Assembly: GCA_013289265.1 (NCBI GenBank) | Contig: JABDAH010000004.1 | Location: 9,153-73,152, forward strand | Direction: 5' to 3' | Origin: Alphaproteobacteria bacterium | GTDB lineage: Bacteria; Pseudomonadota; Alphaproteobacteria; UBA9219 | DNA: 64,000 nt | Shown here: positions 6,368 through 35,847 of the stretch, in pieces | Numbering within the stretch: position 1 is the stretch's first letter | Layout of the letters: every line of letters begins with the position of its first letter | Notes under the pieces: model-generated | Told to the model about the DNA's origin: nothing | Seen by the model: the letters and a program-made list of their open reading frames with translations, nothing else | Database searches by the model: none | Position numbers and translations under genes: made by a program

Positions 6368-7479
6368 GATCCACGCGCCTCGAAATCAATGCGTGGGTCG
6401 GTAGCCACATAGGCAAGATCGCCGATCAAATTCATTACAAGACCGAGCAGGGTAAAGAAATAAAGCGTGCCAAACATGACGGGATAGTCGCGGTTAATGG
6501 CGCTCTCAAACCCCAGCAAGCCCATGCCGTCGAGTGAGAATATGACCTCGATGAGGAGGGAGCCCGTAAACAGGATGGAAATAAACGCACCCGGGAATCC
6601 GGCAATGACAATCAGCATCGCATTGCGGAACACATGGCCGTAAAGGACGCGGCTTTCTTTCAGGCCTTTGGCGCGGGCCGTCAGGACATATTGTTTGTTG
6701 ATTTCATCGAGAAAAGAATTTTTCGTCAGCATCGTAAGACTTGCAAAACCACCAATAACCATTGCCGTGACGGGCAGGGTGATGTGCCAGAAGTAGTCCA
6801 GAATACGGTGCGGCCAGTCCATATCCGACCAATTGTCAGAGACCAGGCCGCGCAAGGGGAACCACTCAAAATATCGCCCGCCTGCGAAGACCACGATCAG
6901 CAGAACCGCGAACAGGAAACTGGGAATGGCATAACCCGCGATAATCACCGCGCTCGTCCAGATATCAAAATTGGTGCCGTCTTTCACGGCCTTCCGGATG
7001 CCAAGTGGTATGGAAATGAAATAGACGATAAAAGTTGTCCAGAGACCAATCGAAATCGATACCGGCATTTTGCTGATGACGAGGTGAAAAACACTTTCAT
7101 CCCGGAAATAGGATTTGCCGAAATCAAAACGCGCATAGTTCCAGATCATCAGGCCGAAGCGCTTGTAAAGCGGTTGGTCAAAGCCGAACTGATGTTCCAA
7201 CTCCTTGATCAGTTCCGGGTCCACGCCTTGTGCGCCGGGGTAATGTGATGTCGCCGATGCATCGCTGGCTCTCATTTGCTGGCCGCCGGGCATGGCAGTT
7301 TCACCAGCGGCAGAACCGCCAAAACGAGCGGTGGCGGCTACATCCGTGCCGTGAAGCTTGGCGACAATCTGTTCAATCGGGCCGCCGGGCGCCGCCTGCA
7401 CGATCAAAAAGTTAAGCACCATGATGCCGAACAAGGTCGGTATAATGAACATTAGGCGGCGGAGGATGTATGCTAGCAT
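6364..7479 (-). CDS. yejB: ABC peptide transporter permease (YejB-type)
   Basis: I start at the ATG at 7479 ([24 protein letters not shown]), the canonical OppB/YejB N-terminus. The 51-codon extension in the ORF track has non-protein-like composition. Confidence 0.8.
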
Positions 7480-8879: not shown

Positions 8880-10166
8880 TTAAGCCGCCTTTGTTTTCTC
8901 GATAGCTCTCCAGCCGATATCACGGCGGCAGAAACCTTCCGGCCAGTCGATCTGGTCGACAGCTTGATAGGCGCGGCTTTGCGCTTCGGCGATAGTATGG
9001 CCCACGGCGGTGACGGCGAGAACGCGTCCACCGGTAGCGATGACATCACCTGCTTCGTTGGTGTCAGTCCCGGCGTGAAATACAACGGCGTTTGGCACAG
9101 TGGCCGCTTTATCCAATCCGCGAATGGCGGTGCCTTTTTTGTAGCTGCCGGGATAGCCTGTAGCAGCCATAATGACAGTCAGCGCTGCGTAATCGTGCCA
9201 ATGGATGTCGATACCGTCCAACATGCCTTTGCTGCAGGCATAGAGCAGTGAGAGTAAGTCTGACTTTAAGCGCATCAACATGCACTCCGTTTCCGGGTCG
9301 CCAAAACGAGCGTTAAATTCAATCAACCTTGGCCCCGTTTTTGTCATCATCAGACCAGCGAATAAAATGCCGCTGAAGGGGCGACCCATATCGCGCATGG
9401 CTTTGACAGTCGGATTGATAATCTCATTCATGATGCGGTCTGACATCGCGGCATCAACGATCGGTGCCGGAGAATACGCGCCCATGCCGCCCGTGTTGGG
9501 ACCTTTGTCACCGTCATAGACAGCTTTGTGGTCTTGCGCCGCTGTGAAGGGGATCGCCACTTCACCGTCGCAGAGGGCAAAGAAACTGACTTCCTCGCCT
9601 TCCATATATTCTTCGATGACAACGGATGATCCGGAATCGCCGAAGGCTTTATTGATCATCGCATCGTCGATAGCCGCCAGCGCTTCCTCAATCGTTTGCG
9701 CAACGGTAACGCCTTTGCCTGAGGCAAGGCCGTCAGCTTTAACGACAATCGGTGCGCCTTGGGCGCGTACATAATCCTTTGCGGCTGTGGCATCGGTAAA
9801 GCGTTGGTAACCGGCGGTCGGTACATTGGCTTTGGCAGCCAGATCTTTCATAAAGCCTTTGGAGCCTTCAATTTCAGCGGCGAGTTTGCCGGGGCCAAAG
9901 CAGGCTATGCCTTCGGCGCGTAATTCATCAGCAAGGCCTAGGGTCAAAGGTAGTTCCGGCCCGATGACGACAAAATCAATTGCATAGAGGTGGCAGACTG
10001 CGATGATATCGTGAATTTTGTCAGCCGCTATGGGCAGGCATTCAGCAACGGCCTTGATGCCGGCATTACCTGGTGCGCAATATAGCTTTTCGCAAAGCGG
10101 CGATTTGGCAATCGACCAGCACAGCGCATGTTCGCGGCCACCACCGCCAACGACGAGAACTTTCAT
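8880..10166 (-). CDS. purD: Phosphoribosylamine-glycine ligase
   Basis: Starts at ATG 10166 (MKVLVVGGGGREHALCW), the canonical PurD N-terminus. The 22-codon extension in the ORF track runs into the palindromic element. Confidence 0.95.
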   Translation of the reverse strand: MKVLVVGGGGREHALCWSIAKSPLCEKLYCAPGNAGIKAVAECLPIAADKIHDIIAVCHLYAIDFVVIGPELPLTLGLADELRAEGIACFGPGKLAAEIEGSKGFMKDLAAKANVPTAGYQRFTDATAAKDYVRAQGAPIVVKADGLASGKGVTVAQTIEEALAAIDDAMINKAFGDSGSSVVIEEYMEGEEVSFFALCDGEVAIPFTAAQDHKAVYDGDKGPNTGGMGAYSPAPIVDAAMSDRIMNEIINPTVKAMRDMGRPFSGILFAGLMMTKTGPRLIEFNARFGDPETECMLMRLKSDLLSLLYACSKGMLDGIDIHWHDYAALTVIMAATGYPGSYKKGTAIRGLDKAATVPNAVVFHAGTDTNEAGDVIATGGRVLAVTAVGHTIAEAQSRAYQAVDQIDWPEGFCRRDIGWRAIEKTKAA

Positions 10167-10185: not shown

Positions 10186-10372
10186 TTAATAACGTCATCC
10201 CGGAACACTTTCTTTTCGACTTGCTTTAGCAAGGCGAAAGAAAGTTTATCCGGGACCCAGTCAGGCTATCCATACAAGCTTTTTATCTGATAGTATCACT
10301 GGGTTCCGGATAAATTCGCATTTTCCCGCTAGTGCGGAAAAAAGCGAATTTTCCGGAATGACGTTACAATTA
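10186..10372. repeat. Nested palindromic element: a 16-bp closing stem around three long hairpins
   Basis: The closing stem pairs TAACGTCATCCCGGAA (10191-10206) with TTCCGGAATGACGTTA (10352-10367), with 1 mismatch. Hairpin 1 is 10208-10246, about 17 bp. Hairpin 2 pairs 10247-10262 with 10299-10314, 16 bp including one G-U. Hairpin 3 is 10314-10351, about 15 bp with a CCGC-tagt-GCGG tip. Confidence 0.7.
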
Positions 10373-10382
10373 AAACCTGATT

Positions 10383-11765
10383 ATGGCTATGGCTGAAACG
10401 ACTACGCAATCCGCTTTATTTGACCAACCAAGGCCCGGCAGTAATTTGCCGGAATTCAGCGTGGGTGAAATCTCCAAACTGTTGAAAAAGACGGTGGAGG
10501 AGACGTTTGGTCAGGTGCGGGTGCGCGGTGAGATCAGTGGTCTGAAGGTCGCGCCCAGCGGCCATATTTATTTCGATTTAAAGGATCAGGAAGCTTTGCT
10601 GGCGTCGGTATGCTGGAAAGGGCAGGCGGGTAAGCTGGGCCTGAAGCTGGAAAATGGTATGGAAATTGTCTGTACCGGACGGCTAACCACCTATATTGCC
10701 CGGTCGAATTATCAGCTGGTCGTCGAACGCGCAGCGCTGGCGGGTGTCGGCGCTTTACTGAAAATGCTGGAAGACAGGCGGAAGCGGCTGGAGGCCGAAG
10801 GGCTATTCAACCCGGCGCGCAAACAGTTGCTCCCCTATTTGCCGGAAGTTATCGGTGTAGTTACATCACCAACCGGTGCCGTGATCCGCGATATTTTGCA
10901 CCGGCTTGATGATCGTTTTCCGCGCCATGTTCTGGTCTGGCCAGTGGCAGTGCAGGGCGAAGGAGCGGCGCAGCAGATTGCATCTGCCATTGAAGGCTTT
11001 AATGCGCTGCCGGAAGACGGCTCTACACCGCGGCCGGATGTTTTGATCGTCGCGCGTGGTGGCGGCTCGATGGAAGATTTGATGCCGTTTAACGAAGAAA
11101 TAGTGGTGCGCGCTGCTGCTGCCAGCCATATTCCGCTGATTTCCGCCGTGGGGCATGAAACCGATACGACATTGATCGATTACGCCGCCGATGTGCGGGC
11201 GCCTACACCAACGGCAGCGGCTGAAATGGCCGTACCAGTGCGGGCTGATATATGGGCGCAAGTGACAGATAACGGCAGGCGCATGGATGATTACATGCGG
11301 CGCATGGTGCAAACACACCGTGAGCATCTGGCGCTTATGGGCCGGGCGCTTGGCGATCCGCAACGGGCGATGGAACCGCTGATGCAGCGGCTGGATGATA
11401 AATCCATACGTCTGACCATGGGCTGGCAGAGTTATCAGGCGAGATGTGCCGCGCGTGTGGCGGAAGCTGCAGGAAAAATAAGGCACCCGCGCGATATCGT
11501 GCAATTAGCCCAGCAAAAATTGATGCATTATGAACATAAAATGGGTTCCGTATTGCGGGAGATGTATTTACGCAAGCAGCATAAGCTAGAAAATTTAGGT
11601 GCTGTACTGGGGCATCTGTCACCGAAAGCAGTGTTGGGCCGCGGTTATGCCCTGATACAGGATGCATCCGGCCATGTAATCACAAGCAGCATAGCGCCCA
11701 AAGATGGGGATAAAATTCAGATCGAATTTTTCGATGGTAAGCGCGGCGCAGTGGTTAGGGATTAA
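10383..11765 (+). CDS. xseA: Exodeoxyribonuclease VII large subunit
   Basis: 460 aa with an OB-fold N-terminus (VRVRGEISGLKVAPSGHIYFDLKD) and the GRGGGSMEDL motif. Confidence 0.95.
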   Translation: MAMAETTTQSALFDQPRPGSNLPEFSVGEISKLLKKTVEETFGQVRVRGEISGLKVAPSGHIYFDLKDQEALLASVCWKGQAGKLGLKLENGMEIVCTGRLTTYIARSNYQLVVERAALAGVGALLKMLEDRRKRLEAEGLFNPARKQLLPYLPEVIGVVTSPTGAVIRDILHRLDDRFPRHVLVWPVAVQGEGAAQQIASAIEGFNALPEDGSTPRPDVLIVARGGGSMEDLMPFNEEIVVRAAAASHIPLISAVGHETDTTLIDYAADVRAPTPTAAAEMAVPVRADIWAQVTDNGRRMDDYMRRMVQTHREHLALMGRALGDPQRAMEPLMQRLDDKSIRLTMGWQSYQARCAARVAEAAGKIRHPRDIVQLAQQKLMHYEHKMGSVLREMYLRKQHKLENLGAVLGHLSPKAVLGRGYALIQDASGHVITSSIAPKDGDKIQIEFFDGKRGAVVRD

Positions 11766-34231: not shown

Positions 34232-34272
34232 GAGTAAGGTTTATCACTTCACGGAGTGTGGGACTAGAGATT

Positions 34273-34317
34273 AGTGGTCAGAGAAGAAAGAGATTATTTC
34301 TTCTTTCTCTGACCACT
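34273..34317. repeat. Long imperfect palindrome (about 20 bp stem), 6 nt downstream of the prmA stop
   Basis: AGTGGTCAGAGAAGAAAGAGA / TTTCTTCTTTCTCTGACCACT. The first 13 bp pair perfectly, then there are bulges. There is no U-tract on the prmA strand, so it may be a REP-like element rather than an intrinsic terminator. Confidence 0.5.
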
Positions 34318-34322
34318 GACCC

Positions 34323-35300
34323 CTAAGCTTTCAGAACCAAAATCGACCATTCCCCAAGCCGTATGCATTTAACGAGATGGATTTTTTGCATCCGGTGCGC
34401 GGCTATAACCATATTGGCTTGATGGTTTAGAAGCCCTGCCAGAATAACCATGCCACCGGGACGCAGATGACGTTTTAAATCGTGCGCCATGTGACTCAGT
34501 GGTTTTGCGAAAATATTAGCCATGATCAAGTCATAGGGTGCGCCCTGATGCACAAGCCGCGAATTGTAGCCGCGATTAACGGATGTGCGGATATTTTTGC
34601 GAAGGCCGTTAGATGCAGCGTTGTTTTTCGCGATCACAACGGAATCCGGATCAAGGTCAACCGCTACATTGTGGCCGCCGTAAAGTTGTGCCGCTGCCAT
34701 CGCCAAAATGCCGGAGCCGCATCCCATATCAAGCATCCTGAAAGCATGCTTTCCTTCTGGCGTGACTCCCGCGCAGGCGGGAGTCCATTTGTGGGCTTGG
34801 TGTTTTAAAAATGGATGCCCGCCTACGCGGGCATGACGCTGAATTAATTTCTTTTTAAAAATCCAGTTTAGCATCAGGAGGCAGCCGCGCGTTGTCGGAT
34901 GTTCGCCTGTGCCGAAGGCATTCGTGGCATCGATCTGCAAAGCGTAGCGGCGGTTGGGAACTTTGCTGCGATGGAGAGCACCGTGAATAGTCCAGCGGGC
35001 GATAGGCAGCGGTGGAAAATCTTCTGCAACTTTTTTCAGCCAGTCGAGTTTCGGCATTTCTTTGATAGTGAGTTTCGGCGTCGCAATTTTATGAATCATT
35101 GCCACGATAGATAGTTGCGCCGTCAGGTTGGGAAGGTCCGGCAGCGAATCATAGAGCGCTTCAATCTGCGCTTCTGCCTTGCGGGGCGGTGCCAGTACCG
35201 TTACAGCCAGCGCATTTTCGCCCAAAGGTTCGGCCATGGCATCGGCCAGCGCAGAAGGTACCTTAAACGTCAGGGCCCAGATTTTGTGCTTAAAAGACAT
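34323..35300 (-). CDS. prmA: Ribosomal protein L11 methyltransferase, carrying an in-frame insertion
   Basis: 325 aa with GTGEHPTTRGCL and LDMGCGSGILAMAA (SAM motif). About 41 residues separate the two motifs, against about 12 in E. coli PrmA as I recall it. Confidence 0.9.
   Translation of the reverse strand: MSFKHKIWALTFKVPSALADAMAEPLGENALAVTVLAPPRKAEAQIEALYDSLPDLPNLTAQLSIVAMIHKIATPKLTIKEMPKLDWLKKVAEDFPPLPIARWTIHGALHRSKVPNRRYALQIDATNAFGTGEHPTTRGCLLMLNWIFKKKLIQRHARVGGHPFLKHQAHKWTPACAGVTPEGKHAFRMLDMGCGSGILAMAAAQLYGGHNVAVDLDPDSVVIAKNNAASNGLRKNIRTSVNRGYNSRLVHQGAPYDLIMANIFAKPLSHMAHDLKRHLRPGGMVILAGLLNHQANMVIAAHRMQKIHLVKCIRLGEWSILVLKA
34760..34839. repeat. ~80-nt double-hairpin palindromic element inside the prmA coding sequence
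   Basis: The sequence is GCGTGACTCCCGCgcagGCGGGAGTCCATTT-n18-AAATGGATGCCCGCctacGCGGGCATGACGC. Each arm is itself a perfect 8-9 bp hairpin, and the arms are inverted copies of each other. It encodes residues about 154-181 (QRHARVGGHPFLKHQAHKWTPACAGVTP). Confidence 0.7.
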
Positions 35301-35502
35301 AGAGATGCGTGAAAGAGTTCAAGTTGATGTGAATTCTGAATAAGAATAGGCCTTTCGTATTCTCCAGCCAATCCAAATTTCAATTCGGTTTCAAAACTAA
35401 TATCAAAGAACCCGATCGTATCAAAACGTCAGGTTTGAAGTTTTTCAATAGCTCCGCTAGTCTCAACACAGATTTCAAACCCGGCAGCTTCAGGAGACAG
35501 TG

Positions 35503-35847
35503 ATGAAGAAGGTAATGACAAAGACCGCATTGGCTATGGTTCTGATGATTGCGGGATTTGCGATATCAGGATGCAGCATGGGCTACCATACTGGCCGCGA
35601 TCCTTATATGGAACTTTCCACGCCGCCGGCTGTTACTCCTTCAAACCCGCCGCCAAAAGATGAAGACCCTAAGACGCATGCTGAAATGCGCGACCAAAAT
35701 ATGATGCTGTCGACACCGCCGATGGTGCAGCCGATGGTATTGCCTGTTGTCGATCAATCTATGTTGGGGCAACCCGCGATGGCGCCAGATACTTCATCTA
35801 TGGTGATAGATTCCGGTATGCATCCCCACTCTTACCCGACAAGATAA
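35503..35847 (+). CDS. Pro-rich lipoprotein, hypothetical
   Basis: The lipobox is AISGC. The SD AGGAGA sits 5 nt upstream of ATG 35503. There is an internal repeat M(E/M)LSTPP. Confidence 0.6.
   Translation: MKKVMTKTALAMVLMIAGFAISGCSMGYHTGRDPYMELSTPPAVTPSNPPPKDEDPKTHAEMRDQNMMLSTPPMVQPMVLPVVDQSMLGQPAMAPDTSSMVIDSGMHPHSYPTR

Follow-up and report, generated by a model that had tools for sequence, protein, structure and literature searches.

The 64-kb window analyzed here (the whole stretch of 64,000 nucleotides, positions 9,153 to 73,152 of contig JABDAH010000004.1 from an Alphaproteobacteria bacterium) contains prmA, the gene for the ribosomal protein L11 methyltransferase (34323-35300, minus strand), within which a double-hairpin palindrome of 80 nt is found at 34760-34839. 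This element is very likely a dimer of repetitive extragenic palindromic (REP) units of the CGTC-1 family, arranged as in the REP doublets forming hairpins (REPINs) and belonging with the repeats known as dRS3 and RPE-6, which was inserted in frame into prmA a long time ago and gives the protein 29-32 extra residues in a disordered loop that the enzyme tolerates.

The prmA gene and the palindrome within it

The frame of prmA is intact and encodes 325 residues. The assignment of the gene was based on a profile search, in which the ORF (open reading frame) at 34323-35300 matched PF06325 with E = 1.7e-50, on the predicted structure, whose best matches in the PDB were to T. thermophilus PrmA (E = 3e-19), and on an alignment of 21 sequences, all 61 invariant columns of which are present in window PrmA. 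The best homologue, P0001 (locus L001, assembled in five separate samples), was 74% identical. No relative closer than this was found, the exact window protein is not on record, and a metagenome scan for a closer PrmA returned a single locus with 61% identity. The closest named homologues are labelled 'MAG: Alphaproteobacteria bacterium'. Outside the insert the gene is strongly constrained, with a nonsynonymous divergence (dN) of 0.159 against a synonymous divergence (dS) of about 2.3 between the window and L001. An earlier note on this DNA, made from the sequence alone, had called the gene essential. This was overstated, since prmA is conserved but is reportedly dispensable in E. coli.

The same note had described a palindrome of about 80 nt lying in frame within prmA, with inverted arms 18 nt apart, perfect stems of 8-9 bp and 4-nt loops. 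All of this was confirmed: the sequence quoted there is exactly that of the plus strand at 34760-34839, the surrounding frame is the one that matches PF06325, and the repeat finder returned two 31-nt arms (34760-34790 and 34809-34839) that are 81% complementary and lie 18 nt apart. Each arm contains an inner hairpin with a 4-nt loop and 100% complementarity, GACTCCCGC/GCGGGAGTC with 9 bp in the first and ATGCCCGC/GCGGGCAT with 8 bp in the second. From repeat finding, folding, pattern search and the family match, the element was described as a heterodimer on the minus strand, in which two REP units stand head-to-head with their tags outside. The unit that is 5' in prmA, unit B (34809-34839, minus strand), reads G-CGTC-ATGCCCGC-GTAG-GCGGGCAT-CCA-TTT in the sense strand, with the tag at 34835-34838, the stems at 34827-34834 and 34815-34822, the loop at 34823-34826 and the CCA tail at 34812-34814. 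The 3' unit, unit A, reads G-CGTG-ACTCCCGC-GCAG-GCGGGAGT-CCA-TTT on the plus strand (34760-34790), with the tag at 34761-34764, the stems at 34765-34772 and 34777-34784, the loop at 34773-34776 and the tail at 34785-34787. The 18-nt spacer between the units (34791-34808, minus strand) codes for part of FLKHQAH.

The sense strand of the element folded as RNA with -46.2 kcal/mol (z = -7.4), and none of 200 shuffled sequences folded as well; the corresponding DNA fold had -26.2 kcal/mol (z = -6.3). When the arm pattern was searched in the 64 kb with up to three mismatches, only these two sites were obtained, with 0.01 expected. A chance palindrome was ruled out by the shuffle statistics together with the family match described below.

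The translation of the element in the prmA frame, QRHARVGGHPFLKHQAHKWTPACAGVTP, was also confirmed. Of the six combinations of frame and orientation in which the 80-mer can be read, only two contain no stop codon, and prmA uses one of them; because this frame has no stop codon, the dimer is predicted to be read through as 29-32 extra residues. In a codon alignment with the homologues P0002 and P0003, FK is directly followed by QGMKVRRMLD in these proteins, whereas in the window KKLIQRH...AGVTP stands between FK and EGKHAFRMLD. Based on the codon alignment, the loop lengths and the model confidence, the inserted coding segment relative to uninterrupted orthologues extends on the minus strand from K150 to P181 at most (96 nt, 34758-34853) and from I153 to P181 at least (87 nt, 34758-34844), the codons being converted to coordinates by hand from the ORF end at 35300. 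In window PrmA, the D of DxGxGxG stands 59 residues from the G of GEHP (G132 to D191, our own residue count) against 26-27 in 86 of 117 homologues, so that the short loop is the majority state, and residues 142-188 correspond to residues 112-123 of the T. thermophilus PrmA chain. Therefore, the excess amounts to 29-32 residues. The longer spacer proposed previously is thus real and its size slightly above the roughly 27 residues given for it, and the comparison with orthologues bore out that the extra residues are lineage-specific, most homologues lacking the insert.

The structure model had a mean confidence (predicted local distance difference test, pLDDT) of 82.6, with values below 50 at residues 156-183, between the helix at 134-149 and the strand at 188-192. 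It predicts that the extra segment is a disordered surface loop, with the helix after the HPTT motif on one side and strand beta-1 on the other. In Rossmann-fold methyltransferases the cofactor site is located at the C-terminal ends of the strands, and by this topology the N-terminal end of beta-1 would lie away from it in window PrmA. Since the extra residues are predicted to form a disordered loop at this position, the enzyme would tolerate the insert. For annotation, a REP dimer would explain the odd low-complexity insert of 30 residues in this PrmA, and caution is advisable before such a segment is called a new domain.

The CGTC-1 family and other known elements

CGTC-1 repeats have been described as units with an unpaired tetranucleotide tag at one end (CGTC, or else TGTC or CCTC), a stem of 8 bp that opens with A-T, a loop of 4 nt and a short unpaired tail, CCA; most form head-to-head dimers whose spacers measure about 20-100 bp (Di Nocera et al., 2013, BMC Genomics 14:522, PMC3733652). 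In the same work the family was equated with dRS3 of Neisseria and RPE-6 of R. conorii, and its members were mostly found in Alphaproteobacteria. A pattern in which only GCGT, CCCGC, GCGGG and CCAT were fixed was used to scan one genome per species. Matches were obtained in at least 120 stretches from alpha-, beta- and gamma-Proteobacteria, Bacteroidota, Gemmatimonadota, Acidobacteriota and other phyla, and the counts given here refer to the 126 arms among the matches listed. Positions left free in the pattern were strongly conserved: of the 126 arms, 123 had C at position 5, which completes the CGTC tag, 118 had T at position 7, 122 had G at position 14 and 121 had A at position 16, and for this reason the listed arms are not random matches. 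The three free stem pairs covary, and T-A, C-G and G-C all occur; Watson-Crick pairing was found in 121 of 126 arms for pair 7-24 and in 118 of 126 for pair 8-23, the latter made up of 59 T-A, 54 C-G and 5 G-C pairs. An inverted partner at a distance of up to 150 nt was present for 68 of these 126 arms.

Compared with this consensus, unit B showed a single departure (loop position 15) and unit A likewise a single one, at position 5, in the tag, where CGTC was mutated to CGTG, which extends the stem to 9 bp. The G differs from the family, being present at this position in none of the 126 listed arms, but the orthologous arm of L001 has CGTC. Neither unit has a stem mismatch, and the two stems combined have none in 17 bp. 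The stems ATGCCCGC/GCGGGCAT and ACTCCCGC/GCGGGAGT enclose the loops GTAG and GCAG, and both arms end with CCA and then TTT; as CCA was a fixed part of the search pattern, finding it in the scanned copies adds no independent evidence. A further difference is the C-G pair instead of T-A at the second stem position of arm A, a variant seen in 5 of the 126 listed arms. As in the family, the tags are outermost; the arms are 18 nt apart and 30 nt lie between CCAT of arm A and CCGC of its partner (our own count), the mode of this distance being 20-40 nt among the matches listed. The ATGCCCGC stem was found in 5 of the 126 listed arms and the ACTCCCGC stem (AC-CCCGC) in 4, so both are minor standard variants, and 34 of the 61 dimers among the matches listed combine two different stems. 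The differences between the two window arms, CT/AG in one hairpin and TG/CA in the other, had been regarded as compensatory. They are complementary inside each hairpin, but they do not count as evidence of selection in place: they represent the two standard stem variants ATGCCCGC and ACTCCCGC, and mixed dimers are common.

The location of the element within prmA differs from the usual extragenic one, for which exceptions are documented in PMC3733652. Intragenic REPs have been reported there, over half of them dimers or grouped repeats coding for 20-30 residues, with peptides of the HSRESGNP and WIPA..GMT types, and recB of two Xanthomonas species carries different REPs at about the same site. 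The window peptides RHARVGGHP and WTPACAGVT correspond to RHSRAGGNP and WIPACAGMT from other scanned family copies and to CHSRESGNP and WIPAFTGMT of the intragenic R. conorii copies (PMC3733652). In the scan, long open frames spanned 15 of the 126 listed arms, in genomes with 58-72% G+C. When 10 such frames were compared with Pfam, seven had no match, in two the only domain lay downstream of the repeat and one had the arm inside a domain (L093); this last arm was rejected as a family member and considered a chance match to the pattern. Among the approximately 125 true family arms listed, none was convincingly located inside a Pfam domain. In-frame CGTC-1 dimers coding for 20-30 residues have been known since 2013, and the prmA case adds an unusually well-preserved example. 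The gene is not named in the main text of PMC3733652 or in those of its supplementary files that were examined. What is modestly new is the recurrent use of the PrmA loop, described in the next section, and how long the arms have been retained at nucleotide level. The case offers a clean and datable REP dimer turned into coding sequence of a conserved protein, and backs the view that proteins can gain peptide segments from palindromic repeats.

The element was also compared with other systems. In REPINs, a pair of inverted REPs less than 130 bp from each other folds into a single long hairpin (Bertels and Rainey, 2011, PMC3116915), which is also the arrangement in the window. In Neisseria, the unit ATTCCCGCGCAGGCGGGAATC, which is one complementary pair apart from window arm A, builds REPINs tied to a Group 2 REP-associated tyrosine transposase (RAYT), and the copies decay where the RAYT gene is broken (bioRxiv 10.1101/2021.07.10.451892); this decay upon RAYT loss resembles the decayed copy of L001. 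In contrast to REPINs, which are described as extragenic, the window copy is within prmA; neither a population of copies nor a RAYT was seen in the 64-kb window, and the copy is pristine even though no population is visible around it.

With the Rickettsia palindromic elements (RPEs) of the RPE-1 type (Ogata et al., 2000, as cited in PMC3733652) the element shares the in-frame palindromic insertion into a conserved gene and its toleration by the protein, the prmA frame being open and all alignment-invariant PrmA residues being kept. RPE-1, however, belongs to the 'longer palindromic insertions' treated apart from the CGTC families (PMC3733652), whereas the window element is a short REP dimer of the RPE-6 type. 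As for the Rickettsia or Rickettsiales genomes in which RPEs would be expected, the window, with 52% G+C and flagellar and cytochrome oxidase genes, would appear un-Rickettsia-like. The proposal of an RPE element with 'IPAKAGIQ'-type peptides in a surface loop is supported by the match to CGTC-1 (RPE-6), by the peptide correspondences and by the low confidence of the modeled loop.

[quoted passage not shown] For the window element, no target-site duplication was identified. Neither a duplication nor exact insertion boundaries could be placed consistently against uninterrupted orthologues, from which the divergence is too great to resolve them. A MITE derived from an insertion sequence (IS) was rejected, as no consistent flanking direct repeat was found in this comparison. 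Since each 'inverted end' is a REP hairpin with a tetranucleotide tag, the architecture is that of a REP/REPIN and not of an IS-derived MITE.

Age of the insertion and maintenance of its arms

The insert of L001 is located at the same codon as that of the window and has the same orientation, the same pairing of arm variants and the same spacer length of 18 nt. Its hairpins are decayed, with 7 and 2 departures from the consensus and 3 and 2 stem mismatches (fold z = -1.8). The next homologues, P0002-P0006, are without the insert. In the rest of the gene, synonymous sites are saturated between the window and L001 (proportion of synonymous differences, pS, 0.71; third-position identity 45.5%), and since a relative this distant has the insert at that very codon, the insertion is old. 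A homologous segment without palindromic DNA had been named in the earlier note as an argument against a mobile element. The relative does have a homologous segment, with decayed palindromes, but what follows from it is an old insertion and not a refutation.

The two copies were then compared by region. The arms were identical at 47 of 62 positions (18/21, 13/20 and 16/21 at codon positions 1, 2 and 3), and the 16 of 21 identical third positions exceeded the 45.5% of the rest of the gene (P = 0.004), whereas only 7 of the 18 spacer bases matched. The insert had a lower pS than the rest of the gene (0.46 vs 0.71) and a higher proportion of nonsynonymous differences, pN (0.31 vs 0.14). Therefore, the arms have been held at the nucleotide level or are younger than the split of the genes. 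When the arm changes were polarised, 2 were assigned to the window and 9 to L001, with a protein-level rate ratio of only 16 to 26. By these comparisons the arms, and not the spacer, were kept nearly unchanged in the window lineage at the nucleotide level, for which hairpin-dependent selection, gene conversion from other genomic copies, quasipalindrome correction and independent insertion are candidate explanations. This retention bears on whether the persistence of REPs and REPINs is due to selection, to replication by a transposase or to structure-driven repair.

Other long-loop PrmA homologues of Alphaproteobacteria carry GC-rich palindromes of different sequence in the same loop. Their repeats, CCCCTCCC-N4/5-GGGAGGGG and CTCTCCCGC-N3-GCGGGAGAG, are translated to PLPLRGRG- or SPLAGEVRRG-like peptides. 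Locus L126 (P0048) contains a CCCCTCCC-N5-GGGAGGGG dimer at 10482-10569 (DNA fold z = -2.8), L127 (P0092) a dimer of the CCCCTCCC/GGGAGGGG type with a long spacer at 1741-1862 (z = -8.8), and L128 (P0104) two CTCTCCCGC-N3-GCGGGAGAG units and a third hairpin at 1691-1778 (z = -5.7). Single units of the CCCCTCCC type were found in L129 (P0100, 10490-10510, z = -0.9) and in the prmA loop of L133 (P0062, z = -2.0); the z-scores of these short units are weak, the palindrome being read from the sequence and not statistically established. As the palindromes in the loop differ in sequence, at least three repeat types have entered it, and recurrent insertion at this site is real.

Additionally, L129 has intergenic copies of the CCCCTCCC-type repeat seen in its prmA, at 7144-7262 and 9393-9563. 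A CGTC-1-like dimer lies some 450 nt upstream of prmA there and reads TGTC-ATTCCCGC-GAAA-GCGGGAAT ... ATCCCCGT-TTTC-ACGGGGAT-GACG.

On the favored reading, a CGTC-1 REP dimer would have been inserted in frame into prmA, probably by a tyrosine transposase of the RAYT type (IS200/IS605-like) that acted on a single-stranded hairpin, a step suggested by analogy with REPINs; it would then have been read through as a tolerated loop, and its arms would since have been held almost unchanged. Several observations weigh against this reading. Pattern search, 13-mer counting and a scan for perfect hairpins gave no second CGTC-1 copy and no other dispersed repeat in the 64 kb, none was likewise found in 14 kb of the relative, and no Y1 transposase (PF01797) was found among the 39 window ORFs of 90-344 residues. 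Mobility in this genome is therefore unsupported, although 64 kb cannot exclude a RAYT, which is a single-copy gene. The copies looked for in the earlier note were obtained only through other genomes, where the family is abundant (at least 120 stretches), and not in the 64 kb, which hold one dimer of a family defined by many copies per genome. Moreover, the pristine state of the window arms, with one departure each and no stem mismatch, does not fit simple neutrality, because a neutral passenger would be expected to decay over a divergence of dS >1.

The state of the arms could be explained if selection kept the hairpins as a nucleic-acid element in prmA, acting in mRNA stability or processing, as a translation pause, as a partial attenuator or as a DNA binding site, with the loop as the price paid. 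This is considered unlikely. The conservation of the arms irrespective of codon position while the spacer drifts, the lower pS and higher pN of the insert and the absence of mismatches in the 17 bp of the stems are in line with it, and an RNA-element role has been proposed for REPs in the literature. The sense-strand hairpin at 34834-34815, followed by CCATTTTTAA (CCA and then UUUUU), was scored as terminator-like within the coding region (34805-34834, minus strand); it is a weak one because of the 3-nt gap before the U-tract, and the T-run after the tail is missing in L001 and is no family trait, positions 30-31 being random among the listed arms. Against such selection, the only relative with the insert has decayed hairpins and a prmA that is still intact, most PrmA orthologues lack the insert and no Rfam family was matched. 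A recruitment of the peptide at the protein level, for example for contacts to L11, to the ribosome or to a protein partner, is highly improbable. The frame is still open in two deeply diverged lineages, which share the motifs QR.AR and W.PACA.VT, but these conserved residues are exactly those that the REP stems encode. The peptide is only about 40% identical, as against about 77% for the remaining protein (our own estimates), in keeping with its high pN, the segment is predicted to be disordered, and the conservation of third codon positions is beyond the reach of selection on the protein.

It was also considered whether the copies in the window and in L001 could be non-orthologous or refreshed, either through independent REPIN insertions at one permissive or targeted site or through a recent conversion of the arms by other REPIN copies of the genome, so that the window copy would be young. 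The other palindromes in the same loop, the spacers barely above chance similarity, the near-identity of the window copy with the family consensus and the uneven distribution of polarised changes (2 against 9, for a protein rate ratio of only 16 to 26) would all agree with this. However, both copies share codon, orientation, frame and the 18-nt spacer length, both pair the same rare stems (ATGCCCGC at the 5' side, 5 of 126 listed arms, and ACTCCCGC at the 3' side, 4 of 126), and the 64 kb contain no donor copy. Furthermore, head-to-head dimers of one population usually keep their spacers, so that two recent insertions should share theirs if they came from related populations. A young window copy is accordingly rated as quite improbable, and an old insertion of a single REP dimer is preferred. 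A broader proposal can be made for the PrmA loop, to which only a low probability is given. The loop between helix 134-149 and beta-1 would be a recurrent landing pad for REP-type repeats, of at least three types in at least six lineages, and the arms would then be actively maintained for very long by a structure-dependent process, be it selection for a role that the hairpin has in prmA as RNA or DNA, or a palindrome that corrects itself. REPs inside genes would in that case not be decaying fossils but conserved elements that have a function or preserve themselves.

Further features of the window

The window is an ordinary dense chromosomal region with smpB, lpxK, a cytochrome oxidase operon, rnhB, ftsY, the ornithine carbamoyltransferase gene and flagellar export genes. 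No tRNA or tmRNA was found in the 64 kb, and Rfam gave no match at gathering thresholds across the window. A known structured RNA was rejected for the element, near which only sub-threshold matches appeared, to FtrB and, with E of about 1, to CRISPR direct-repeat models. A full-length sub-threshold match to FtrB (Francisella sRNA B) was obtained at 34732-34852, with 24 bits against a threshold of 66 bits (E = 0.09), and is probably driven by the hairpins.

The space between prmA and the aminopeptidase gene downstream of it is taken up by a near-perfect palindrome of 61 nt (34265-34325), which folds as sense-strand RNA with -37.9 kcal/mol (z = -5.5). The prmA stop codon (TAG, minus strand, 34323-34325) supplies the first three bases of this palindrome, and the C-terminus of window PrmA is LKA, compared with LKRRxRA in homologues. 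The gap between prmA and the aminopeptidase gene is 91 nt in the window and 7 nt in L001, L129 and L132. This palindrome is not repeated elsewhere in the window and looks like a second, unrelated palindromic insertion beside prmA.

On the other side of the gene, a small ORF on the opposite strand (35500-35847, plus strand) is located between uvrD and prmA. It has a lipoprotein-like signal start (…AGFAISGCS) and no Pfam match, and ORFs of 108-123 residues, also without a Pfam match, occupy the same position on the strand opposite to prmA in L001, L131 and L132. Finally, a 26-nt inverted repeat with 85% complementarity and 18 nt between its arms was found at 10245-10314, between divergent ORFs that end at 10232 and start at 10383, and may be an operator or another hairpin element.

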